From an uncultured Planctomycetaceae bacterium (GTDB taxonomy: Bacteria > Planctomycetota > Planctomycetia > Planctomycetales > Planctomycetaceae): DNA of 64,000 nt. A program made the position numbers and the translations under genes. The stretch's first letter is position 1, and the number at the start of each line of letters is the position of its first letter. Below the pieces are notes generated by a model that was not told where the DNA came from, did no database searches, and saw nothing but the letters and a program-made list of their open reading frames with translations. Location: NCBI GenBank assembly GCA_963815195.1, contig CAWFGE010000013.1:320001-384000 (forward strand), given 5' to 3'. Positions 43,013 to 56,712 of the stretch are shown here, one piece after another.

Positions 43013-44041
43013 TCACGCGCCGGGGCGAATGTCGATCTCTGTCGTCAGGTCATCGATGTCGATGCACGTGATTTCCACGTCGAGAAACTTGCGGATGACC
43101 TCGGCATTGGTCGTGGTGTGCAGCGTGATCGGCGATCCGGTTCGATAGCGACCGCCCTGTCCCAAGGCCAACGGGATCAAGAGTTGATCCGCCAGATGCG
43201 GGCCGACCGGCGCAGTCGTTTTCAGATAGGCTTTGCACTCGCGGACCAAACCCGCGGCCACCTTCTCGGCCGGGACGCCTTTTTCTCCCAAGGCGGAAAA
43301 TAACTCCGTCACCGACCCGGCGTCGATCGCGACCATCACAATATTGCCCGGCCCCCGCGCGGTCGTGTCCGTTTCGATTTCCCGCTGCCAGTTCCCGAAA
43401 GGCAATCGCCGGGAGAGAACATCCAACTCCCGCTCGGCGATGTGTTCGGGCAATTGCGAGACAATCGCCTTCGCCGAGCACTTGGGTTTTTGATGGCGTT
43501 CGAGCAGCGTCAACGATCCTAATCGTTCCACGGGTTGAATCGTCGCTTCGACCAGGCCGCCGCCGACCGGATAGAAACCCCGGCGGAGCAATTTCAAGGA
43601 CACCTTTGGTCCCAGCTTTTCCAACAGCGGCAGAAAAGTCGATTGCAAAAAATCGAACGGCGGGGCCATCGTGTTGTGGGTGCCGCCTTCCAAGGTGAGA
43701 TGCGAAGGCTCGGCGGCGGTCATCAGCACCGGCAGGACTGTTTGCAGAACGAGCATCGTGCTGCCCGCGGTGCCGATGTCGAAGCGGTAATGCCCCGGCG
43801 AAACGGGACCGGGCTCGAACGTGACTTCCCGCGATTCCAGTTGATCGCCCGTGGCCTCTGCCCCGCTGATTTCCGCCGCCGCCCGCACACAGGTCAGGTG
43901 CTGCCGTTTGAGTCCGGGCTTTTTGCGGTTGGCCCGGAGATTGAACATCCGAAACGGCTTTCCGGTCGCCATCGAAAGCGCGAGCGACGTGCGGAGCATC
44001 TGCCCGCCGCCTTCGCCGTGGGAACCGTCGATTTCAATCAT
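43013..44041 (-). CDS. rtcA: RNA 3'-terminal phosphate cyclase
   Basis: GEGGGQMLR, PGLKRQH, RGFYPVGGG and HLADQL motifs. Confidence 0.95.
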   Translation of the reverse strand: MIEIDGSHGEGGGQMLRTSLALSMATGKPFRMFNLRANRKKPGLKRQHLTCVRAAAEISGAEATGDQLESREVTFEPGPVSPGHYRFDIGTAGSTMLVLQTVLPVLMTAAEPSHLTLEGGTHNTMAPPFDFLQSTFLPLLEKLGPKVSLKLLRRGFYPVGGGLVEATIQPVERLGSLTLLERHQKPKCSAKAIVSQLPEHIAERELDVLSRRLPFGNWQREIETDTTARGPGNIVMVAIDAGSVTELFSALGEKGVPAEKVAAGLVRECKAYLKTTAPVGPHLADQLLIPLALGQGGRYRTGSPITLHTTTNAEVIRKFLDVEITCIDIDDLTTEIDIRPGA

Positions 44042-44823
44042 GAAGGAACTTCCGGTTCGTTTTCGGAGGGATTCTGATAGAGGCTTTCTTCGAGGGCTTC
44101 CATGACTTCGCCGAGCGGGGCGTTGATCACCAGATCGGCGACGGCGTCGAGCGGGGTTTCGTCCCGGTTGATGATCACGAGCTTCGCCCCGTTCCTCGCG
44201 GCGATCTCGGGAAGCTGGGCCGCGGGATACACGACCAGCGAAGAGCCGAGCGTCAAAAACACGTCGGCTTCCATCGCCCACGTCGCCGCCGTTCGCAGGA
44301 CATCCGCCGGCAACGCCTGGCCGAAGGAGACGGTGGCGTGCTTCAACAGCCCCTGGCATTCCGGACATTCGGGAACGGTCTGGGTTTTCAAAAACTCCCG
44401 CACCAACGGGTCGGCCGGGGTGCGGTAGCTGCAATCGAGACAGGCGATTTCCATCGCGGTGCCGTGGAGTTCCAACACGGCCCGGCTGCCGGCCCGCTGG
44501 TGCAGGCCGTCGATGTTTTGCGTAATCACGCCGCGGAGCAAACCTAATTCTTCCCAGCGGGCCAAGGCGCGGTGCGTGATGTTGGGCTCGGCTGTAAACA
44601 TGGATTCGTGGGACTCGGACTTCTGCCGCCAGTATTCCTGCCGGGCGTCGGCAAACCGCACGAAATCGTCAAAATACACCGGCTGCGACTTGGCCCACAC
44701 GCCGCCGGGACTGCGAAAATCGGGAATCCCGCTCTCCGTGGAAATCCCCGCGCCCGTAAAAGCCACCGCGGAACGGGCCGTCATTAGCCAGGCAATCAAC
44801 TGCTCTTTCATCTTTTCTTGCAT
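44038..44823 (-). CDS. Sir2/CobB family NAD-dependent deacylase
   Basis: GAGISTESGIPDFR, TQNIDGLH, ELHG, two CxxC pairs and GSSLVVYPAA. Confidence 0.95.
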   Translation of the reverse strand: MQEKMKEQLIAWLMTARSAVAFTGAGISTESGIPDFRSPGGVWAKSQPVYFDDFVRFADARQEYWRQKSESHESMFTAEPNITHRALARWEELGLLRGVITQNIDGLHQRAGSRAVLELHGTAMEIACLDCSYRTPADPLVREFLKTQTVPECPECQGLLKHATVSFGQALPADVLRTAATWAMEADVFLTLGSSLVVYPAAQLPEIAARNGAKLVIINRDETPLDAVADLVINAPLGEVMEALEESLYQNPSENEPEVPS

Positions 44824-44862
44824 GGACCGTTCCTCTCGGATTGGCTCTCGCACGGGTGCCAC

Positions 44863-46044
44863 CTAATCCGCCCTCCGCCCAGTTGATAACTGCTCTTCCA
44901 AGGCGGGGCGGAGTTCGTGGAGCCGTTTCCACATTCGCGAGCCGTCCTCGGCCCGGCGTTTGACGACGGAATCCCAATAACCCAGCAGCCGAGCCCGGTC
45001 CTGAGCTTCATCCTTGAGCACCACGCCCAACAGCAGTCCCGGCACCAAGGACAACGGGTCGCCCGGCCCCGGAAAATACGCCGCCTGCCGGCCGATGGAC
45101 GTCGCGATGGCGACGGCCTCCGCGGTGCTCATCACGGTGCTGGGCTTTTCGACCGACCAGCCTTCCGAAGTCCGGCCTTCGCGGAGATCGCGAAACGCCG
45201 TCACCAGCACATCGAGAACGCCTTCGTCCACGCTGAACTCCACGCCCCCGCGGGCCAAAAGCGCGATGGCCTGACTTTTCACCAGATTGACTTCGCGGTC
45301 GTGGTCGGAGATGGGCGGGATGACCTCGAAGTTGAACCGCCGTTTGAGCGCGGCCGACATCTCGGACACGCCCCGGTCCCGCAGGTTCGCGGTGGCGATC
45401 AAGTTGAATCCTTGGGAAGCGAACACGCTGCCCGTTTCGCCGGAGAGTTCGGGGATCATCAGCCGGCGTTCCGACAATAGCGAAATGAGCGCATCCTGAA
45501 CTTCCGGGAGGCAACGGGTGACTTCTTCCACGCGGACGAGTTGGCCGTCCCGCATGCCGGTCATAATCGGCGAAGGCACCAAGGCCTGTTCGCTCGGGCC
45601 TTGGGCGAGCAGCAAGGCGTAATTCCACGAATAGCGGAAATGGTCTTCGGTGGCCCCGGCGGTGCCTTGGATGGTGAGGGAACTCGTGCCGCTGATCGCC
45701 GCCGCCAACAGTTCCGAGAGCATCGACTTCGCAGTGCCGGGTTCGCCGACCAAGAGCAACCCGCGTTCGCCCGCGAGCGTGACTACGCAGCGTTCGACGA
45801 CCGCGCGTTCGCCGATGAACTTTTCCGAAATCTCCAACGACTTGGGCACGCCCTTGGCGGCTTTGGCTCCCTTGGGAAGTTTCAATTTCTCCCCGCCCGA
45901 GCCGCAAATAAACTCCACAACCCGCGCGGGCGAAAGCTGCCAGCCCTCCGGCTTCGGGCCCTCATCGATCGCCGCCAGAAACGCCAGCTCCTCGGCAAAC
46001 CGCTCCTCCGCCGGCGGAGCTTGATGTTTTGAATGGTCGCTCAT
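44863..46044 (-). CDS. MoxR-family (YehL-like) AAA+ ATPase
   Basis: GEPGTAKS, WNYALLLA, EEVTRC and EMSAALKRRF motifs. Confidence 0.85.
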   Translation of the reverse strand: MSDHSKHQAPPAEERFAEELAFLAAIDEGPKPEGWQLSPARVVEFICGSGGEKLKLPKGAKAAKGVPKSLEISEKFIGERAVVERCVVTLAGERGLLLVGEPGTAKSMLSELLAAAISGTSSLTIQGTAGATEDHFRYSWNYALLLAQGPSEQALVPSPIMTGMRDGQLVRVEEVTRCLPEVQDALISLLSERRLMIPELSGETGSVFASQGFNLIATANLRDRGVSEMSAALKRRFNFEVIPPISDHDREVNLVKSQAIALLARGGVEFSVDEGVLDVLVTAFRDLREGRTSEGWSVEKPSTVMSTAEAVAIATSIGRQAAYFPGPGDPLSLVPGLLLGVVLKDEAQDRARLLGYWDSVVKRRAEDGSRMWKRLHELRPALEEQLSTGRRAD

Positions 46045-46135
46045 GGTCTCAGGTGGGGTTGGACGTGTTGGGGGACGCCGTCAGGTGAAAGAACGATCAT
46101 CCAAAGATTTCCCGCCGTTGGCAACTGATTTTCTC

Positions 46136-46873
46136 TCAGGTCGTCGCCGACCCCAACAGCACGTTCATCAGCAGGCCCAAGGCAATGCCGATCAACGCGA
46201 CGTAAACCAGTTTTTGAAACCGCCCCGGGGAAATGCGGCGGCTCAAGAAATGCCCGGTGCCAAATGCGAGCGCGGTCAGCGGCAGGCACATCATGTAATG
46301 CCAAAGCACGGCTTTCGTCCAAAACCCCGCGAGCGCATGCGAAGCCAGCACCATCGATCCCGCGAGCAAAAAGTATCCCTGCAGCGTCGCCCGGAATTGC
46401 TGGATCGACCATTGGCGAAGGAAACCGAAGATCACCAAAGGCGGCCCGTGGGTGTTGTAGGCTCCGCCCAGAACGCCCGCGACCCAGCCGAACAGCACCG
46501 CCCAGCGGTCGCTTTTCAAATGAAACCGGCGGGGATGAGCCAGGTTGAAGACCGCGAAACTCAAAATCACGCCGGCCAAGACGCCTTTGACAATTCGCTC
46601 GTCCAGGCTCGTCAAAAGCCAAATCCCGAGGGGAATGCCGAACACCGCGCCGATCACCAGCCGGGCGGTGGCGCCGAACTCCATGTGCCGCCAATCCGCC
46701 GCGACGATCGCCACGGTCACGGTCATCGACACCATCGCCACCAAAGGCGTGGCAAAGGACAAAGGCACCAGAAACGCCAACAAAGGCATCGCCAAGAGCG
46801 CATTGCCGAACCCAAACGTGCATTGCACCAAGGTGGCCAGAAACATCACGCTCAAAATCCAAGGAGTCGGCAT
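46136..46873 (-). CDS. TSUP/TauE-SafE family transporter
   Basis: FGFGNALLAMP and GGAYNTHGPP motifs; about 8 TM segments. Confidence 0.85.
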   Translation of the reverse strand: MPTPWILSVMFLATLVQCTFGFGNALLAMPLLAFLVPLSFATPLVAMVSMTVTVAIVAADWRHMEFGATARLVIGAVFGIPLGIWLLTSLDERIVKGVLAGVILSFAVFNLAHPRRFHLKSDRWAVLFGWVAGVLGGAYNTHGPPLVIFGFLRQWSIQQFRATLQGYFLLAGSMVLASHALAGFWTKAVLWHYMMCLPLTALAFGTGHFLSRRISPGRFQKLVYVALIGIALGLLMNVLLGSATT

Positions 46874-47090
46874 CGCCCAAAGGTATTGGGCCGCCCTTCC
46901 GCTTTCAAGCGAGCGTCTCCGTCTCCCATTCGCCGCATCTCCCGGCAGGCTGACCGCTTGCATCTCGGCGAAAGAGTTTCTACTATTTGGACAGCGAAAA
47001 ATGTGAAAATCTGCGGATTCATCCAAACCCAAAACACCCAAAGGATCGCCAAGAAAATAATTTAAACTTTTGAGAGACTCAACATGACCA

Positions 47091-47114
47091 GGGGGCTTAC
47101 GCCCCCCGCTCGCC
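47091..47114. repeat. Family B REP
   Basis: GGGGGCTTACGCCCCCCGCTCGCC, identical to the argJ copy including upstream CATGACCA. Confidence 0.88.
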
Positions 47115-47214
47115 TTTTGTCACTATGTTGAAGTTATTTTCTTGACATTCCAAAGCCGATTTCGCCGTCCCGCCGACTTGATCCAAAAACCCCCGAGAGT
47201 GCAACAACCGTGTG

Positions 47215-47745
47215 ATGGCTGACGACCTCATCTTTATGATGGGAAAGTACGAAGCCCGGATCCCGACCGACCGCTGGTACGCTCCCAACCATTTGTGGCT
47301 CCAATCCTGCCAGGGCGATGGCCAATCGCCTTACCGGGTGGGGTTCACCGCGTACTCGGTGCGGATGCTCCAGGACGTGTATTTCCTGGAGTGGACCATC
47401 GACCCGGAGACCCAAGTCAAAGAACGGCAAGAGATTGGGGAAATCGAAAGCTCGAAGGCCCTTTCCAGTCTGTATTCGCCTTATGCCGGGAAGTTGTTGA
47501 GTTTTAACGAGGCGCTCTTGGACGATCCCTCCGCGATCAATGCCGACAACTACGGCGGCGGCTGGCTGTTCGAACTGGACACCGCCGCCAAACTGTTGTC
47601 CCCGGAAGAGTACGTCGAGCGATTGGAAGCAGGTTGGGAAAAAGATCAGCGGCTGATCAAGGGGCAGATTCAGTACGCGCAATCGTCATTTTTGATTATT
47701 GAGAATAGAGCACCGACATGGCCGGCAAAAAAATCACCGTGGTGA
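47215..47745 (+). CDS. GcvH-like lipoyl-domain carrier protein (true stop possibly near 47675)
   Basis: [12 protein letters not shown] (lipoyl-Lys context), LYSP and [11 protein letters not shown]. The tail after LIKGQIQ overlaps the next gene and may be readthrough caused by an indel. Confidence 0.85.
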
Positions 47746-48794
47746 TTTCCCAGCACCAGGGAAAAAACCCCGTCAAACGCAACCTCGAAGAAGAAATCGC
47801 GGCGGACCTCATCATGGCGTCCGATGTGGATGTGTCCATCGTGCCGCACATTTACGACATGAGCGCGGACCACACCGGGATGCTGTTTCTCCGCTCGGTG
47901 CCGGGAAACGTGGTGATTCTGTCCTGGCTCTATCCGCGGGCGGCCCGGTGGATTCTCGACCGCCAGGGCGTGCGCGGGCACGAAGGGATCACGCTCCTCA
48001 AGTCGGAAGAGGAAGAAGACATCGACGAGGAAAACGTCCCGGAGCCTCAGGGCATCGGCTCGGTGAACATCCCCAATCGCAAAATTTACGTGCTGGATTT
48101 GCGGAGCAGCACCGACCCCAAAACGTATCTGAATGAAATCCGCCGCATCGCCCAGGAATCCAGCGTCCAAACCGTGCAACTTTTGGACTGGATCGAAGGC
48201 AGTCCGAAAAAAGAGCAACTCGACCGCTACCTCGCCCCCCAATCGGCCCCGAATGACAACGGCAACGGAAACGGCCAAGCCGCCGCCAACGGCAACGGGC
48301 ATTCCCATAAACAAACCGGCAACGGGCACGTGATCGAGGAAGCGACCAAACGCCGCTGGTATCCGGTGATCGATTACACCCGCTGCACGAATTGCATGGA
48401 GTGCATCGACTTTTGTTTGTTCGGCGTGTACGGCGTGGATCAGCTCGACCGCATCCTCGTCGAGGAGCAGGACAACTGCAAAAAAGGCTGCCCCGCGTGC
48501 AGCCGGGTTTGCCCGGAAAACGCAATCATCTTCCCCGGCCATAAAGATTCCGCGATCGCCGGGGCCAACGGCGAAGTGGGCAATTTGAAGATCGACCTCT
48601 CCAAGCTCTTCGGAGCGACGGACAAATCGCCCTTGGAAATGGCCGTCGCCGAGCGGGATGCCGAGCTCGTCGCCGACGGCCGGGACGCGGTGGGCATGTC
48701 CGTGGGCGTCCCCAACCACAACACCAACCTCGACCAGGCCGAGGAAGACGAGCTGGACGATCTGATGGACGGCTTGGATGACCTCGACCTGTAG
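47718..48794 (+). CDS. 2x[4Fe-4S] ferredoxin-domain protein with uncharacterised N-terminal domain and acidic tail
   Basis: [11 protein letters not shown] and [13 protein letters not shown] motifs. Confidence 0.88.
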
Positions 48795-48831
48795 AAGTCC
48801 CAAGGACCAAGCACCAATGACCAATAGAAAA

Positions 48832-48858
48832 GGCGAGCGGGGGGCGTAAGCCCCCTGG
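48832..48858. repeat. Family B REP
   Basis: GGCGAGCGGGGGGCGTAAGCCCCCTGG. Confidence 0.85.
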
Positions 48859-48904
48859 TCCTTCAAATAGAGCATAGGCGCAAAAACTCAGACGGGTTGC
48901 AAAA

Positions 48905-50909
48905 TTGTTCAATTCCAGGCTCACGCAATGCTATGACGCGGCGCGGTCGGCACTGCTGGCCGAGCGCACGACGGACGGGCATTGGGTGGGGGAACTTTCC
49001 ACGTCCGCCCTCTCCACCGCGACGGCGGTGATGGCCCTGGAAATGGTCCAGCGCGACGGCGGCGGCGAGTTTTCGGAATGGATCGCAGGCGGTCTTAAGT
49101 GGCTTGCGAAGCACCAAAACCCCGACGGCGGTTGGGGCGATACCACCAAAAGCCTGAGCAATATCTCCACCACGATGCTCGCCCGCGCGGTGTTTCATGC
49201 GACAGGAACCGAGGCCCAATATCACCTCGTCGTTCGCAAAGCGATGGTTTGGATCAATCGAGAAGGCGGCGTGCCCGCGATCGTTGCCCGCTACGGCAAG
49301 GACAAAACGTTTTCGATCCCGATCCTCACCCACTGCGCCCTCGCGGGGTTGGTCAATTGGAAAGAAGTCCAGGCGTTGCCTTTCGAGTCTGGCTTGCGTG
49401 CCGGCCCGGTTTTATAAGACCGTCAAGCTGCCCGTGGTGAGTTATGCCCTCCCCGCTTTGATCGCGATCGGCCAGGTTCGGCATCATCACAAGAAAACCT
49501 GGAACCCAATCACACGCTTCCTGCGCTGGTGGGCCAAGAACCCGAGTCTCCGGGTTTTGGAAAGAATCCAACCCGATAACGGCGGATTTCTGGAAGCCGC
49601 GCCGCTGACGAGCTTTGTCACGATGAGTCTCGCCGGGATGGGATTATCAAAGCATCCCGTGGCGAAAAAGGGCGTGGAGTTTTTGCTCCAGTCCGTCCGC
49701 GAAGACGGCAGTTGGCCGATCGACACCAACCTCGCGACTTGGACGACGACGCTCGTGGTCAATGCCCTGGGTGATGATTTGCCTGAAGAAGATCGGCCCG
49801 CGATTCGAGATTGGCTCATCAATCAGCAATATAAAACGCTGCACCCCTACACCAACGCCGACCCCGGCGGCTGGGCGTGGACCAACCTCCCCGGCGGCGT
49901 GCCCGATGCCGATGACACGCCGGGGGCGATCTTGGCACTCGTGCAGTTGAGGACGAACGAAAGGGAACACAATTCCCCAAGCCGACGACTTGTCGTCGGT
50001 CCCCCTCACCCGAGCCCTCTCCCCCAAGGGGAGGAGGGACAAAGCCCTCGGGATTCCGAAGTTTCAGAAGCGATTGGCAATGGCATCGATTGGCTGGTGG
50101 GCCTGCAAAACCGCGATGGCGGGTTTCCCACGTTTTGCCGGGGTTGGGGGACGCTGCCCTTCGACCGCAGTGCCCCGGACCTCACCGCCCATTGCTTGAG
50201 AGCAATGATTGTCTTTCGTAATCGGCAGCGATGGCTCGATCTCCACACGCCCATTGAACGGCGTGATGATCTCGATGATTTCGTCAACGACGTCTGTGAG
50301 TATCAGCAAGCGATTGCCTACGGCGGAATCGTCCATCCGCTCGATTCCGCTTCAGTCGATGCGACGACGAAGGCATTTAAGTTCTTGGCGAGTTCCCAGC
50401 AGCCCAACGGTTCCTGGCTGCCTTTGTGGTTTGGCAATCAACATGCGCCCGACGACATCAACCCCACCTACGGCACTGCTCGCGTATTGGCGGCGTATCG
50501 GGACGCGCGAGATCAAACGAACCCAATCGCCCTTCGCGGGGTTGAATGGTTAAAGAACAACCAGAACGCCGATGGCGGTTGGGGCGGCGTTTTGGGGACG
50601 CCTTCGAGCGTGGAAGAGACGGCCCTCGCGACGGAGATTCTCTTGTCCTGGGAACCGCACGGGGAACACGCCCGGCGGGGATTGGAATGGCTGATGGACC
50701 GCGTCGAGGACGGCCGCTACCGCGAGACGACGCCCATCGGTTTCTATTTCGCCAAATTATGGTATTTTGAGAGCCTGTATCCGCTCATTTTTACCGTCGC
50801 CACTTTAAGACGTGCCGTACAGACGTTCCGAAAGCCCCCGGCAAAAGCCGCCAGACACCAACCGCAGCGAAAAACCCCCGCCGCTGTTTCCCCGACGCCC
50901 GATGAATGA
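48905..50909 (+). CDS. Squalene-hopene-cyclase-like class II terpene cyclase; frameshift near 49389
   Basis: DGHWVGELS, several QW repeats ([30 protein letters not shown]) and catalytic PDADDT. Confidence 0.88.
49976..50038. repeat. Family A REP plus CCCTCTCCCC..GGGGAGGAGGG palindrome inside the cyclase CDS
   Basis: Exact CCCAAGCCGACGACTTGTCGTCGG then CCCCTCACCCGAGCCCTCTCCCCCAAGGGGAGGAGGG. Confidence 0.88.
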
Positions 50910-50973
50910 ACTTTGAGACCCACGGCAAGCGGCCGCCGGCGGCTTGACCGTTCGACCTTTTGAGGAGAAGCCT

Positions 50974-52860
50974 GTGTCCATTGCTCCGACTTCGCAACAC
51001 GATTCGCTCGACATCACGACTTCTTCGGTTTCCCCCTCCGCCGCGTCCAAAGCAGCCGCGCCCCCGGCCGATGATCCCGCGCCCGTCAAGCGCAAACGCC
51101 GCCGGGCCAGCACGAGCCATCTCAAAGACGTGCCGGGCACCTTAGCCCTCCGCGAAGAGATCAAAGCCGCCGCCGAAAAGTTCGCAGAGCCGTTGGACAA
51201 ATCCCGCCCGTTCAACAAAGGCGAACTCGAAGCCCACGGCCGGGAACTTTTGGAGCAAATTGGGCTGCCCGAAAAATACCTGGGCTTCGCGATGGTGCTC
51301 GTCGGGAATTTCTTCTGGAAGCGGCAGTTCCTCGCCACGCCGTTTGAACGGCGGATGCTGTTGTTGCCGCATTGCCTCAAACACGCCGAGGGCTGCCCGG
51401 CCGATTACGACGAGTTCGGCCTGGACTGCGAACGCTGCGGGGCCTGCTCGATTGCCGATTATAAAGTCAAAGCGGAGCAACTTGGCTATAAAGTCTTGGT
51501 CGCGGAAGGCTCGCCGATTGTTTTGAAGATCATCGTCTCCGGCTACATCGACGGCATCTTGGGCGTGGCGTGTTTGAACGTCTTGGAGAAGGCGATCGAT
51601 AAAGTTTTGATCGCCGGCGTGCCGAGCTATGCGATCCCGCTGCACTCCGGGGACTGCAAAAATACGACGCTGGACGAAGCCTGGGTCTGGGACGTGCTCG
51701 AACAATACGAACCGCTTCCGGAACCGCAAACTTCCAGTTATGTCCCCTTGATGCGGGCCGCGAACCGCTTGTTCGACGACCGCTTCGAAACGCTGCTGCC
51801 CCGCATCCGCACCAAAACCCCCGCAGCCGCGAACAGTCCTTTGGGGAAAACCGAACAGATTTCCTACGATTGGCTGGCGAACGGCGGCAAGCGGTTTCGG
51901 CCATTTATGACGCTCGCCGCTTATGACGCCCTCACCGGAGCCAAGGGCCTGACCGCGGGTCCCGGCGGCGAGGAATCGCTCGAATATTCCGCCGGCGTCG
52001 GCCGGGTGGCGATGGCGATCGAAGCCTTCCACAAAGCCTCGCTGGTGCATGACGACATCGAAGATGACGACCAGTACCGCTACGGCCAGGAAACGCTGCA
52101 CCGCAAATACGACCTGGGCACGGCGATCAACGTGGGCGACTATCTGATCGGCCTCGGTTATCGGCTGGTAAGTTCCGCCCGGACGGACATCGGAGCCGAG
52201 GCCGCCGCCGACATTCTCGACCGCATGGCCGCGGCCCACGTCAAACTCTGCGACGGCCAGGGCGCGGAGATGGCTTGGCAGTCCGCCCCGAACGCCGAAC
52301 TCACGCCGCTGGATGCCCTGCAAATCTACGCTCTCAAAACCTCGCCCGCTTTCGAAGCGGCGCTTGTATGCGGGTCTGCGGATGGCCGGACCCGTGGCGG
52401 AATACGAAGAGTTCCTGCCGCAGTTCGCCCGGCAGGTCGGCGTGGGCTTTCAGATCCTAAACGACCTCAAAGACTGGCGGGGCGACGACAACAACAAACT
52501 CGTCGCCGGCCAGGATGCGCTCTCGCTTCGCCCCACCGTGCTGTTGGCATCGCGTATCAATCCGCGAATGAAGAAGACCGCCGGAGTTTGCATCGCCTGT
52601 TGGAAAGCAAAAACCCGCAGGCCCAGCGGATCGAGCAGCTTCGAAAACTCTTCGAGAAGCACAAGGTCTTCGACAAGGCGGAAGTCCTCATCGAAAAATC
52701 CCGCACCCGCGCGGAAGCCTTGGTGGAAGACATCGAGTCCGAGGAACTCCGGCAACTGTTCCACTTCCTGATCGACACCGTCCTCGCCCCCGAAGACATC
52801 CCGCAGCCCGATGTGCCGCCGGACCCCGTGATGGTGCCATTGCAGATCAGCGGAACCTAA
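50974..52860 (+). CDS. DUF116-like Cys-rich domain fused to trans-polyprenyl diphosphate synthase; compensating frameshifts near 52366 and 52549
   Basis: [20 protein letters not shown], then [16 protein letters not shown] and, in the shifted frame, [18 protein letters not shown] before GTG. Confidence 0.85.
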
Positions 52861-52961
52861 TCGGCTTGCTTGTGTCCTCTGCTGTATGATCCGGGATTGA
52901 GGATGGGATTCCATTATTGGGATTCCTGACCAACCATTGCTTTCTAAAGGGGCAATTCGGC

Positions 52962-54502
52962 ATGACGGACCCCAATCATTCCATTCTGTGCCCAGTCCAA
53001 CAGCAAGCGTTTGACCTACTTATTCAGTCCGCCGAGATTGGCAACATCCTGCATTGCTGGTCAAAAACCGGACGCGGCCAAAGCACGGTTCTGACACATT
53101 TGCACCGCCGTTTCGGGGGTGTGTTTCTGGGGATCAAGGATTTCGTGGAGGGCACGAACGGCAGCCACCCCTTGGCGTTGGAAGATGCTCTGTACCAGAT
53201 TGTGCTGGATGCCCTTCAGAAAAACGACTGCGTGATCGTCGATGACATTCACGTAGCCACCGCCGCGATGAGCGAGTGCCATTTTTATCCTCGCGCGGGA
53301 TACCTGGATTCGCCCATGACCGTACTCGCCGCCTATGCGGTGGAATCGGGCAAGACTATGATCCTCGGCAGTAACGGGAAGTTGCCAGCTCCGCTCCGCG
53401 AGCGCAGTTTCGGGATTGGGATTCGGAGCTTCGCTCCAGAAGATTACTCCCACCTCTGCCGGCAATTTCTAGAAGTTGATGATCTCCATCTTGAGATTTC
53501 CAAAGTTCATCGGTTTGCGCCGAAACTCAATGCCCATCAATTGAAATTGGCCTGTGCGTGGTGCCGGCAAAATAAGACGCTGAATACGGAGGGAATTCAT
53601 TAAGTATCTCCGCTCGCAGCAACTTACCAGCAACGTGGCGCTGGGCGAAGTGGCGGAGGTTGATCTGACGGAACTCAAGGGTGTGGACGATGTGCTAAAA
53701 AGCCTGGATGCCAACATTGTCCTTCCGCTTGAGAACGATGAATTGGCCAACGAATTAAACCTCAAGCCCAAACGCGGCGTATTACTGGTCGGTCCTCCAG
53801 GAACCGGAAAAACGACCGTGGGCCGCGCTTGGCCCATCGCCTGCGTGGAAAATTCTTTCTGGTGGATGGCACCTTCATCTCTGGAACCAACGACTTTTAC
53901 AATTTGGTGCACCAGGTTTTTCAGGCGGCGAAGGACAACGCGCCTCGGTGATTTTTATCGACGACAGCGACGTAATTTTCGAGAGCGGCCAGGAACACGG
54001 CCTGTACCGTTATTTGCTGACCATGCTGGATGGCTTGGAAAGTGAAAGCGCCGGCGGCGTGTGCGTGATGATGACTGCGATGGACGTGGGCAATCTCCCT
54101 CCCGCCTTGGTTCGTTCTGGGCGGATTGAACTGTGGTTGGAAATGCGGTTGCCTAATCGGCTGGCCCGTTTGGCGATTCTCGAACAGCACCTTGCCGCTG
54201 CACCGAAACCGCTCAACGAGGCCGACGCGAAACAGATTGTCCAGGCAACCGATGGGTTTACCGGTGCCGATCTGAAACGCACCCTGGAAGATGGGAAAGC
54301 GCTTTACGCCTATGACCGAGTTGCCGGCGACGGAATCCAACCCGTAACGGAATACTATCTCGCCTCCCGCGCAAACTGTTCGTGCCAACAAGGAAAAATA
54401 TGCCCAGGCCGAGGCACAAGCCAACGCCAGCCGACCTTCGCCCCGGTGTGGTTCAATCCTTATTCCGACTATGATTTTCATGATGACGAGGTCGAGGATT
54501 GA
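52962..54502 (+). CDS. Tandem AAA+ ATPase (degenerate first domain, canonical second), broken by at least four indels; possible pseudogene
   Basis: GPPGTGKT, IFIDDSD, LPPALVRSGRIE and GFTGADL in successive frames; shifts near 53597, 53830, 53945 and 54370. Confidence 0.7.
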
Positions 54503-55243: not shown

Positions 55244-56712
55244 CCACCCCTTTCAACATGTCACTTACCCCTGGATTTGGCCAGAGTTCGCGCGGTGGAG
55301 ATATGGTGATTCCGTTTGCCGCTCTTTTTTCGAGGCTGTGGTTTTTTCGGCCCGCGTTTCTTTTTGGGGTAACGCGTCAAGTCGATGCGTGTAGCAAGTC
55401 GCACCAACTCGCTCGCAAGTTTTCCAGCAGACATGATTTGATAGTGTTGCCAGGCTTCGGCGTCCACGGCAATGTTCATGCCCACCGTCGTGGCTGTCAC
55501 GTCCTGCGTCAGATGATAGTCCGACAGTTGTTCTTCGATCGTTTCTGCACTGTGAACGGACCGCAGGGCCGCTTTCACGACGGCATAAGTGTTATAGGCC
55601 AATACCGCCGTGGCGAACGCGAACGGCGCAGCCTTGGGGTAGCCCAGCGTCTCCACTTCGCAACGCAACACCTCGGTCAGAGTTTGGAAGGCTTCTTCAA
55701 TCGTCCAGCGCTTGCGATACAGAAAAGCCACTTTTGCGCATTGGCGACTTTGACAGGCAAGTTGGTCAGGATGTGAATCTCAGTGTCACCATTCTCTGTG
55801 GGCGTATCCAATTGGATGGTGATCCGCCGGACTCGCAACGTCTCTTCACCCTGGGACAGCTCGGCCGACTGCTCGAAAACAACACCCGTTTCGATGCGTC
55901 CGATGCGTTTCCGGCGACCGACGAGTTTCCAGGTGAGTGTCGAAGCGTGTTGGCGAATGACAAAGTAGGCCGACTGCTTGACAATTCCAAACAGAAACTT
56001 GGTCGTGCAGAAGTTCCGGTCGGCGATTGTCACCGTCTCGGCCCGGATCCATTCCAGAAGCTCCGGCAGAAGCGAACGTTCCTGAGCATGCCCGTCTTCA
56101 CACGGGAGCAGTTCCGAAATCAGATCCCGCTGCGCATCCAGAAGCGCCAAGGTCTGGCCGGGCAAAGGGCCTTCCCGCGTGACGCGCAATTCCGCCAGCC
56201 GATGCTCAGTCGCCGCCAAATGATTCCCGTCCAAATACTGCACGTGATAGCCCGGCAAAAGTTCGCGGCATGCTCCCGGCATGGCATCGATGACTTGAGC
56301 CGCGTCCTGGCTCGTTTCCCGGATCATCGTCGCCGAAAGACCGGGTTCAAGACGGTTCAACTTGCCATAAAGCGCGGCCGGCGAAACCGCCAGTCGATCC
56401 TTGGCGGCCAAGTATCCGGCATGGACCGACGTGTGCGTCCGCGTCGCCACGCCCATCATCAGGGCCACCACTTGCGAAAACAGCAATTCTTTCTCGTATT
56501 GTCTCTGCGAAGCGTCGGCGAAAATCTCATCCAGTCGATCCGACGACACAAGATTCTCGAGCGTTGCTCGAACCATCACTGCCGCTGGACATTCTTCCAC
56601 AAAACGATCAAGCACAGCGTCGGGCCACATCCTTGCCGCCTCCATAAGGTTTGATACAACAATCCCTGTAGAAGCGACTTATAGCAAAAAACTAACATGT
56701 TGAAAGGGGTGG
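55244..56712 (-). mobile_element. IS4-family insertion sequence (transposase ~55261-56645, frameshift near 55729)
   Basis: Perfect 18-bp TIRs CCACCCCTTTCAACATGT; direct repeat CGATGCCCAC on both flanks; DDE motifs LDGNH, IADRNF and YRKRWTIE. Confidence 0.93.

Follow-up and report, generated by a model that had tools for sequence, protein, structure and literature searches.

A conserved gene set around a divergent class II terpene cyclase of 'SHC-like' type in a planctomycete

The window analysed here, a 64,000-nucleotide stretch of contig CAWFGE010000013.1 from an uncultured Planctomycetaceae bacterium (assembly GCA_963815195.1), carries four adjacent genes for a GcvH-like lipoyl-domain protein, an iron–sulfur (Fe-S) protein, a class II terpene cyclase, and a trans-prenyl diphosphate synthase joined to a DUF116 domain. 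The unit is real and conserved and belongs to an uncharacterised pathway centred on an orphan cyclase clade that has already been published. On balance, we consider the four genes to be what remains linked of a conserved set of seven genes, predicted to yield a ring-bearing lipid from a head-to-tail polyprenyl chain of about C30 without passing through squalene. Direct observation covers the four genes and their motifs, the conservation of gene order, and the joint occurrence of the unit with genes for a prenyltransferase-like barrel, a radical S-adenosylmethionine (SAM) enzyme, and a CobW GTPase. The cyclase–synthase pair was already in print; the larger gene set and the predicted chain length are added here. 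Handles beginning with G, C, and L denote genomes, contigs, and loci.

The four-gene unit

All four genes were located on the + strand at 47215-52860 with the motifs first described for them, and the coordinates of their open reading frames (ORFs) and motif positions confirmed that they are adjacent and co-oriented, as a preliminary description of this DNA had claimed:

47215..47675, + strand, GcvH-like lipoyl-domain protein, 153 residues (PF01597, expectation value (E) 4e-19; Lys81 in ESSKA at 47455)
47718..48794, + strand, Fe-S protein (Fer4 matches; 2x[4Fe-4S] motifs at residues 216-270)
48905..50909, + strand, class II terpene cyclase, 'SHC-like' type (SQHop_cyclase_N/C; DADDT at 49905-49919)
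50944..52860, + strand, DUF116 + trans-prenyl diphosphate synthase (PF01976, E 6.6e-37, and PF00348; DDIED at 52051; NDLKD at 52460-52474)

The order GcvH-like–Fe-S–cyclase–synthase was recovered in 20/50 named loci with at least 6 kb of upstream sequence and in 10/20 relative loci, which removes the concern that the first two genes might not be syntenic with the cyclase elsewhere. This recurrence exceeds chance by far, though kin are not independent. The cyclase adjoins the synthase in 46/50 named loci with sufficient flank. Among named genomes, the nearest relatives belong to Planctomycetaceae.

In the assembled sequence, a +1 slip near 49387 divides the cyclase into two ORFs. A +1 slip near 52363 and a -1 slip near 52547 enclose a stretch of shifted frame that contains the NDLKD motif, and the GcvH-like gene has lost its stop through a base missing at 47675, so that it reads through to 47745. 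The three coding slips are not present in three sister genomes, which slip at other positions. At 47675, the missing base is present in a contig of run X1 (depth 3.5), and a sister genome likewise has the GcvH-like stop; among the X1 pieces listed, none spans 49387, 52363, or 52547, so that 47675 is the sole slip compared with a run. Given the sister genomes free of them and the base restored by X1, the single-base slips are likely assembly errors. Promoter and terminator scans of the unit remained at chance level.

The larger gene set

The view of the four genes as the complete system proved too narrow, as the barrel and the radical SAM enzyme co-occur with the cyclase more tightly (47/48 genomes each) than the GcvH-like carrier does (32/48). 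The L024 operon comprises genes for a GcvH-like protein, a CobW GTPase, a small Cys protein, the Fe-S protein, a radical SAM enzyme, the DUF116-synthase, the prenyltransferase-like barrel, and the cyclase. In L217, the operon runs GcvH-like, CobW, Fe-S, radical SAM, cyclase, synthase, and barrel, which is the window order with the missing genes inserted, and full operons of other lineages frequently add a desulfurase. In the genome under study, three of the partners were assigned as orthologues of operon genes; they lie on other contigs and show 55-76% identity to planctomycete orthologues:

C4:104594-105526, prenyltransferase-like barrel
C22:71259-70067, radical SAM enzyme of type A
C20:157737-156634, CobW GTPase

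This genome yielded no match for the small Cys protein.

Profiles with thresholds set to pick orthologues were run over 201 Planctomycetota genomes of at least 90% completeness; the range beyond this phylum rests on papers, Atlas taxa, and metagenome loci. As kin genomes are not independent, the resulting counts are descriptions, not statistics. The cyclase was found in 48/201 genomes and the barrel in 47/201, all among those 48. The type A radical SAM enzyme was detected in 37/201 genomes, all within the cyclase set. A second, B12-family-like radical SAM enzyme (type B) fills the same slot in 11 metagenome loci and was present in 10/11 cyclase genomes lacking type A and in 0/11 others; in all, 47/48 cyclase genomes carry one of these two mutually exclusive enzymes. 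CobW occurs in 42/201 genomes, 35 of them with the cyclase and 7 without. The core of the set is thus composed of synthase, barrel, radical SAM enzyme, cyclase, and, by synteny, the Fe-S protein, whose gene was surveyed in five genomes and in the loci rather than across the 201. Away from the terpenoid set, a CobW-type GTPase also stands beside aquaporin-like (MIP) genes (L232 and L239).

The cyclase

The DxDDT acid motif is present in 89/92 cyclase homologues. Against the TIGR01507 cut-off of 431 bits for squalene–hopene cyclase (SHC), the two window pieces score 34 and 60 and the intact orthologue in L024 111, whereas a gene on C17 of the same genome reaches 665. As the C17 gene passes this cut-off and the window cyclase falls far below it, the latter is, by profile score, the second, divergent enzyme of the genome, which speaks against its simply being a hopene cyclase. 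The absence of squalene synthase and hpn genes from the window, noted at the outset, was likewise upheld, as the genome copies sit elsewhere: HpnC/D-like genes on C13 at approximately 1.00 Mb, HpnH on C18, and the true SHC on C17. A host from the Planctomycetes–Verrucomicrobia–Chlamydiae (PVC) group, retained catalytic residues, an adjacent polyprenyl synthase, and a length of 550-700 residues are features of the published 'SHC-like' clade, to which the cyclase belongs on the strength of these features rather than of a tree with the published reference sequences (SqhC, AtoE, and PlaT2).

The DUF116-prenyl synthase and its natural losses

The synthase domain carries ASLVH-DDxxD, RYG, and NDxxD, with the first DDxxD, KR, GQ, and KT motifs present, and the gene is intact in sister genome L021. 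RYG replaces the usual RRG in 154/156 synthase sequences. The variant second aspartate motif reported earlier was recovered as NDLKD; NDxxD is common to 87/88 Planctomycetia-type sequences, and 68/68 other sequences have DDxxD. Ala-Ser precedes the first aspartate motif in 156/156 matched synthases, a long-pocket pattern, and these small residues agree with a predicted product longer than C20.

Each of the seven conserved cysteines of the DUF116 domain is kept in 157-159/160 sequences. Its model had a mean predicted local distance difference test (pLDDT) score of 90.5, and fold searches returned generic flavodoxin-like matches only, the best at Z 7.6; a flavodoxin-like fold for DUF116 was predicted in PMC5898192. 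Apparent DUF116-synthase fusions of 700-1130 residues were rejected as artefactual open-frame extensions. The proposed link of DUF116 to lipoate ligases was not substantiated, as no such fusion was found, which is a weak null. Stand-alone DUF116 genes follow fmt in L207-L211, L213, L215, L216, L220, and L224, with the L207/L208 type placed between fmt and rsmB, and one family has DUF116 in 23/23 genomes. A second DUF116/radical SAM link, without prenyl synthase, was observed in G196 (L222:5941-10258), where a distant relative of the type A radical SAM enzyme and a glycyl-radical-activase-like gene flank two stand-alone DUF116 genes.

Genome G148 (99% complete) provided a natural loss, as it gave no match for the cyclase, barrel, type A radical SAM, GcvH-like, CobW, or Fe-S genes, all of which are present in G179 of the same genus. 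Its synthase retains the catalytic motifs but has lost 4/7 DUF116 cysteines, while 86/89 other sequences keep all seven. Identity of the G148 protein to the others is 0.42 in DUF116 (0.82 among the others) and 0.65 in the synthase domain (0.64 among the others). As the cysteines decayed alongside a kept synthase domain, they likely serve the cyclase pathway rather than chain elongation. In G179, a complete, single-contig genome, a second copy of the synthase lacks all DUF116 cysteines and groups with the G148 gene as its sister (100/99). The decayed-cysteine copies, both from genomes in which an IspB-like gene was not found, are the following:

L250:5506-7470, DUF116-synthase copy of G179
L244:7622-9469, DUF116-synthase copy of G148

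The slips described above and the losses in G148 bear on the reading that the unit is decaying in this organism, or that the genes for the GcvH-like and Fe-S proteins only travel with it and do a job of their own. The cyclase, synthase, and type A radical SAM genes are slipped as assembled, and CobW persists in 7 cyclase-less genomes, as this reading would predict. Yet unrelated neighbouring genes are split too, the slips of sister genomes fall at other positions, run X1 corrects one of the slips, and the Fe-S and GcvH-like genes went together with the cyclase in G148, the Fe-S gene also not being found in G022 and G334, all of which makes decay or passenger status very improbable.

Most of the 42 scanned genomes have an IspB-like gene, an IspA-like gene, and, where present, this synthase. 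With G022, G063, and G164 as positive controls, an IspB-like gene was not found in 7/10 synthase-keeping genomes searched (G148, G179, G286, G032, G218, G229, and G024). In the simplest reading, this suggests that the synthase domain can supply the menaquinone tail. To our knowledge, menaquinone-6 (MK-6) occurs throughout Planctomycetia, including the IspB-less genera. For Gemmata, it is reported as the quinone of three strains (PMC10817699). From the retention of the synthase where IspB was not found, MK-6, and the small residues ahead of the first aspartate motif, we infer a product of about C30.

A product apparently shared with quinone synthesis would also suit a meroterpenoid route, in which a hexaprenyl chain is placed on an aromatic head, either one derived from 4-hydroxybenzoate or the quinone itself, and then cyclised at its far end, as for MstE and the route proposed for sponge merotriterpenoids. 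In 6/20 relative loci, the synthase has a chorismate-lyase-like gene nearby, and PMC5618424 proposes that hexaprenyl hydroquinones are cyclised by a bacterial SHC-like enzyme. This gene was, however, found in 34/201 genomes that comprise just 25 of the 48 with the cyclase and 9 without it; it was retained by G148, it occurs in 0/38 metagenome loci, and no UbiA-type gene recurs in the neighbourhoods examined. We therefore regard the route as unlikely, if the least so of the alternatives considered. The chorismate-lyase-like gene was rejected as a core member since its distribution departs from the cyclase profile, and its HemN-like neighbour was rejected as well, though HemN was not profiled. 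The HemN-like radical SAM gene and the chorismate-lyase-like gene recur as a pair (G000:C10:260032-262400, L032, L225, and L226), which often adjoins the cluster yet is distributed differently.

The synthase could, alternatively, replace squalene synthase, with the DUF116-synthase and the radical SAM enzyme reductively coupling two prenyl diphosphates head to head into a squalene-like hydrocarbon that the cyclase converts to a new triterpene. Reducing Fe-S proteins would suit such a two-electron coupling, the RYG and ND motifs are altered, and a figure legend in bioRxiv 2025.11.21.689855 places DUF116 with SHC, HpnH, and polyprenyl synthetase in a Bipolaricaulota cluster. Yet the synthase appears to substitute for IspB, and its domain thus likely makes an ordinary chain. 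In addition, the genome has HpnC/D-like genes, the published sister group of the clade uses head-to-tail chains (PMC12324236), and the stand-alone DUF116 genes examined mostly occur in def-fmt-rsmB contexts. DUF116 as an anaerobic partner of squalene synthesis was set aside on the last of these grounds to a minor rival, and the replacement scheme is quite improbable.

Barrel, radical SAM, and Fe-S partners

The barrel consists of alpha-alpha toroid repeats (PF00432) and matches the beta subunit of Rab geranylgeranyltransferase with an E of 1e-16. Its PDLLST segment aligns with PDVCYS, and at what we take to be the zinc-ligand positions (Asp, Cys, and His) of protein prenyltransferase beta subunits, Leu replaces the Cys and Tyr the His; zinc-thiolate protein prenylation by the barrel is unlikely for this reason. 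The invariant residues are Asp, Glu, and Tyr, and the barrel would be expected to remove the diphosphate or transfer a head group. A search for barrel homologues revealed abundance only, with 7864/8000 candidates scored. The type A radical SAM enzyme on C22 is not among the TIGR03470 matches, the HpnH of the genome being the C18 gene, and PDB sequence searches retrieved no close relative for it, the small Cys protein, or the chorismate-lyase-like gene.

The Fe-S protein combines an N-terminal flavodoxin/receiver-like domain without cysteines with a C-terminal 2x[4Fe-4S] ferredoxin, whose eight cluster cysteines are invariant in 25/25 sequences, and is predicted to act as an electron donor. The ferredoxin portion of the model was poorly predicted. 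The N-domain model superposed on a receiver domain with Z 8.6 and a root-mean-square deviation of 2.8 over 95 aligned residues, a common fold, and its fold search gave only generic flavodoxin-like or receiver-like folds among the matches listed. Compared with the Cys-rich small protein of the full operon, the Fe-S protein gave a weak profile match (probability 25%, E 8e-4). We presume a likeness of the N-domain and of this small protein to HdrA-N/MvhD, for which no PDB sequence match was found.

The GcvH-like protein

The GcvH-like protein scores under both NCBIfam GcvH cut-offs (85.8 against 117 bits and 70.6 against 115.85 bits). Its Lys81 is invariant in 24/24 aligned sequences and matches the lipoyl lysine of solved H proteins. 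The genome has its gcvT/H/P cluster on C20, and the GcvH encoded there shares 29% identity with the window protein; the preliminary description was therefore right in noting a conserved lysine without gcvP/T nearby. A GcvH-like match was obtained in 32/48 cyclase genomes, every one with the type A radical SAM enzyme and CobW, and was not found in the remaining 16/48, 5 of them with type A. Present in only these 32 and always with type A, the carrier is a branch-specific accessory tied to the type A enzyme and CobW, and not a scaffold.

This distribution also bears on a carrier-bound pathway, in which the lysine would carry a lipoyl or sulfur group and the prenyl chain or its head would be built there before cyclisation, giving a sulfur terpenoid. 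Such a scheme would account for the invariant lysine, for the position of the GcvH-like gene next to the Fe-S gene and cyclase in this lineage, for the nesting of the carrier within the type A set, and for a desulfurase inside the fetched DNA of 11/38 metagenome loci. It is at odds with the 16 cyclase genomes lacking a match, including those with type A, with a barrel devoid of the zinc-thiolate ligands required for S-prenylation, and with a desulfurase in 0/50 Planctomycetia-type named loci. We judge it improbable; it may hold for the type A branch only, and chemistry on the carrier, as first envisaged, is not general given the genomes without the gene.

Proposed pathway

The synthase domain would first extend farnesyl diphosphate with isopentenyl diphosphate to an all-trans diphosphate of menaquinone length. 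Subsequently, the barrel, in which the zinc Cys and His are absent while acidic and tyrosine residues are retained, would remove or replace the diphosphate head. The radical SAM enzyme would then act on the head or chain in a radical step that does not require oxygen and is obligatory in this scheme, with the 2x[4Fe-4S] protein and the Cys-rich DUF116 domain as its electron sources. Finally, the DxDD cyclase would protonate the far-end alkene and close three or four rings, leaving a tail. The steps after chain synthesis may run in any order. The GcvH-like protein and CobW, together with the desulfurase and small Cys protein in other lineages, would service the type A enzyme by providing sulfur, reducing power, or cluster upkeep, and the GcvH-like protein would not carry the prenyl chain. 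The original proposal of a non-hopanoid pathway from a linear polyprenyl chain gains support from the score of the cyclase, far under the SHC cut-off, and from the separate hopanoid genes.

Several points weigh against this reading. The four-gene order is broken in 30/50 named loci, and relatedness among the genomes leads the co-occurrence counts to overstate the association. The cyclase, synthase, and type A radical SAM genes of this genome are all slipped as assembled, with 47675 alone checked against a run. The case for DUF116 decay comes from one genus. The ten genomes of the IspB search were picked as suspects or their kin, not at random; the sequences of G286, G229, G218, and G032 were only partly covered, and G024 is 78% complete. 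In addition, the labels 'IspB-like' and 'IspA-like' were assigned from motifs and scores, the IspA-like rows were excluded from the synthase tree by a motif filter, and MK-6 is documented for Gemmata only. The RYG and ND variants of the synthase could mean altered chemistry, and the putative role of the barrel derives from residue patterns only.

More speculatively, the set may allow tri- or tetracyclic hexaprenoid membrane lipids to be made by a bacterial route that needs no oxygen. An Fe-S prenyl synthase would, with a barrel dependent on metal and a radical SAM enzyme of exchangeable type, prepare a C30 head-to-tail chain for the DxDD cyclase, and such a route would be a living source of cheilanthane-type rock biomarkers. 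We hold this extension to be rather doubtful, if worth pursuing. Cheilanthanes are listed as lacking a characterised pathway in bioRxiv 2026.01.29.702649, which adds that hopanoid breakdown can yield the same molecules.

In two papers on the evolution of cyclases (PMC7306690 and PMC12324236), what the 'SHC-like' clade uses as its substrate is posed as an open question. The present analysis supplies a gene set (synthase, barrel, Fe-S protein, one radical SAM enzyme, and cyclase), a predicted substrate length, and natural loss mutants. It also offers a first functional clue for DUF116, the cysteines of which decay upon loss of the cyclase set while the synthase domain is retained. If true, the reading gives a testable answer as to the product of a long-orphaned cyclase family, and a cyclised regular hexaprenoid would have a bearing on orphan biomarkers and sponge merotriterpenoids.

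Repeats and neighbouring genes

Three dispersed repeats lie in or beside the unit:

47080-47125, no strand assigned, upstream of the unit, similar to the following repeat (approximately 125 copies)
48795..48870, no strand assigned, Fe-S/cyclase spacer (125 and 127 genomic places for this and the similar repeat)
49985..50045, no strand assigned, in frame within a cyclase loop (21 genomic places; reads as a proline-rich loop)

The first two flank the first two genes, and sister-genome alignments break or gap across the third. Immediately downstream of the unit, an AAA+ ATPase gene at 52917-54502 (+) is in three pieces, probably through further assembly slips, and is not kept beside the cluster in relatives. 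The divergent upstream region at 43013-47041 (-) encodes a TauE-type exporter, a MoxR-like AAA ATPase, a Sir2 deacylase, and an ORF that we take to be RNA cyclase-like, none of which recurs beside the cluster in relatives. At 55261-56645 (-), two ORFs overlap each other and presumably represent a split insertion-sequence transposase.

Comparison with known systems

The term 'undescribed', initially applied to the system, was too strong, as the cyclase clade with its adjacent polyprenyl synthase was flagged in 2020 (PMC7306690) and the DUF116-synthase fusion in 2015 (PMC5898192). Literature searches, with most subscription journals and preprint supplements outside their scope, retrieved no paper that describes either the full set or its product.

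The GcvH-like protein has the lipoyl-domain fold and conserved lysine in common with both the H protein of glycine cleavage and stand-alone lipoyl carriers, and differs from the former in its sub-cut-off scores and lack of linkage to gcvT/P. With the hopanoid pathway (Shc, HpnCDE, and HpnH), the window set shares a two-barrel class II cyclase with DxDD and a radical SAM partner. It differs in a score far below the SHC cut-off and in its own prenyl synthase instead of a squalene synthase, and the Shc, HpnC/D-like, and HpnH genes of the genome are separate from it.

In the phenalinolactone, atolypene, and longestin systems (PMC11317874 and PMC11600129), a polyprenyl synthase, a head-group transferase, and a class II cyclase likewise act on a head-to-tail chain, and their cyclases form the published sister clade of the 'SHC-like' type. 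The Pla/Ato systems employ a UbiA transferase, a flavin epoxidase, and an xxx(E/D)(T/S)xE motif (PMC11600129), in contrast to the canonical DxDDT of the window cyclase and to the soluble barrel, Fe-S, and radical SAM proteins of the set. No recurring UbiA transferase or flavin epoxidase was found among the clustered ORFs of the fetched loci, no genome-wide search having been made.

In the Sporulenol pathway of Bacillus (HepS/T, YtpB, and SqhC), a prenyl product of quinone length is diverted and its head is converted, with cyclisation of the far end by a DxDD cyclase. The proposed logic of the window set resembles this scheme in all three respects. It differs in that no YtpB-type enzyme recurs, the barrel and the radical SAM/Fe-S proteins standing in its place, and in that different phyla are involved. 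SqhC is also named in PMC7306690.

The closest published counterpart is the 'SHC-like' clade itself, defined in PMC7306690, where a polyprenyl synthase is pointed out in the vicinity and a precursor other than squalene is predicted; according to PMC12324236, the function of the clade is undemonstrated and it is sister to the epoxy-polyprenyl (head-to-tail) cyclases. As far as the text of these papers was available, it is silent on the barrel, on radical SAM, Fe-S, GcvH-like, and CobW proteins, and on chain length; some of these partners may appear in the synteny of Fig. S10. The window cyclase shares with the clade a PVC host, an intact DxDD, a length of approximately 600 residues, a polyprenyl synthase next door, and its place as a second cyclase beside a true SHC, and nothing contradicts its membership.

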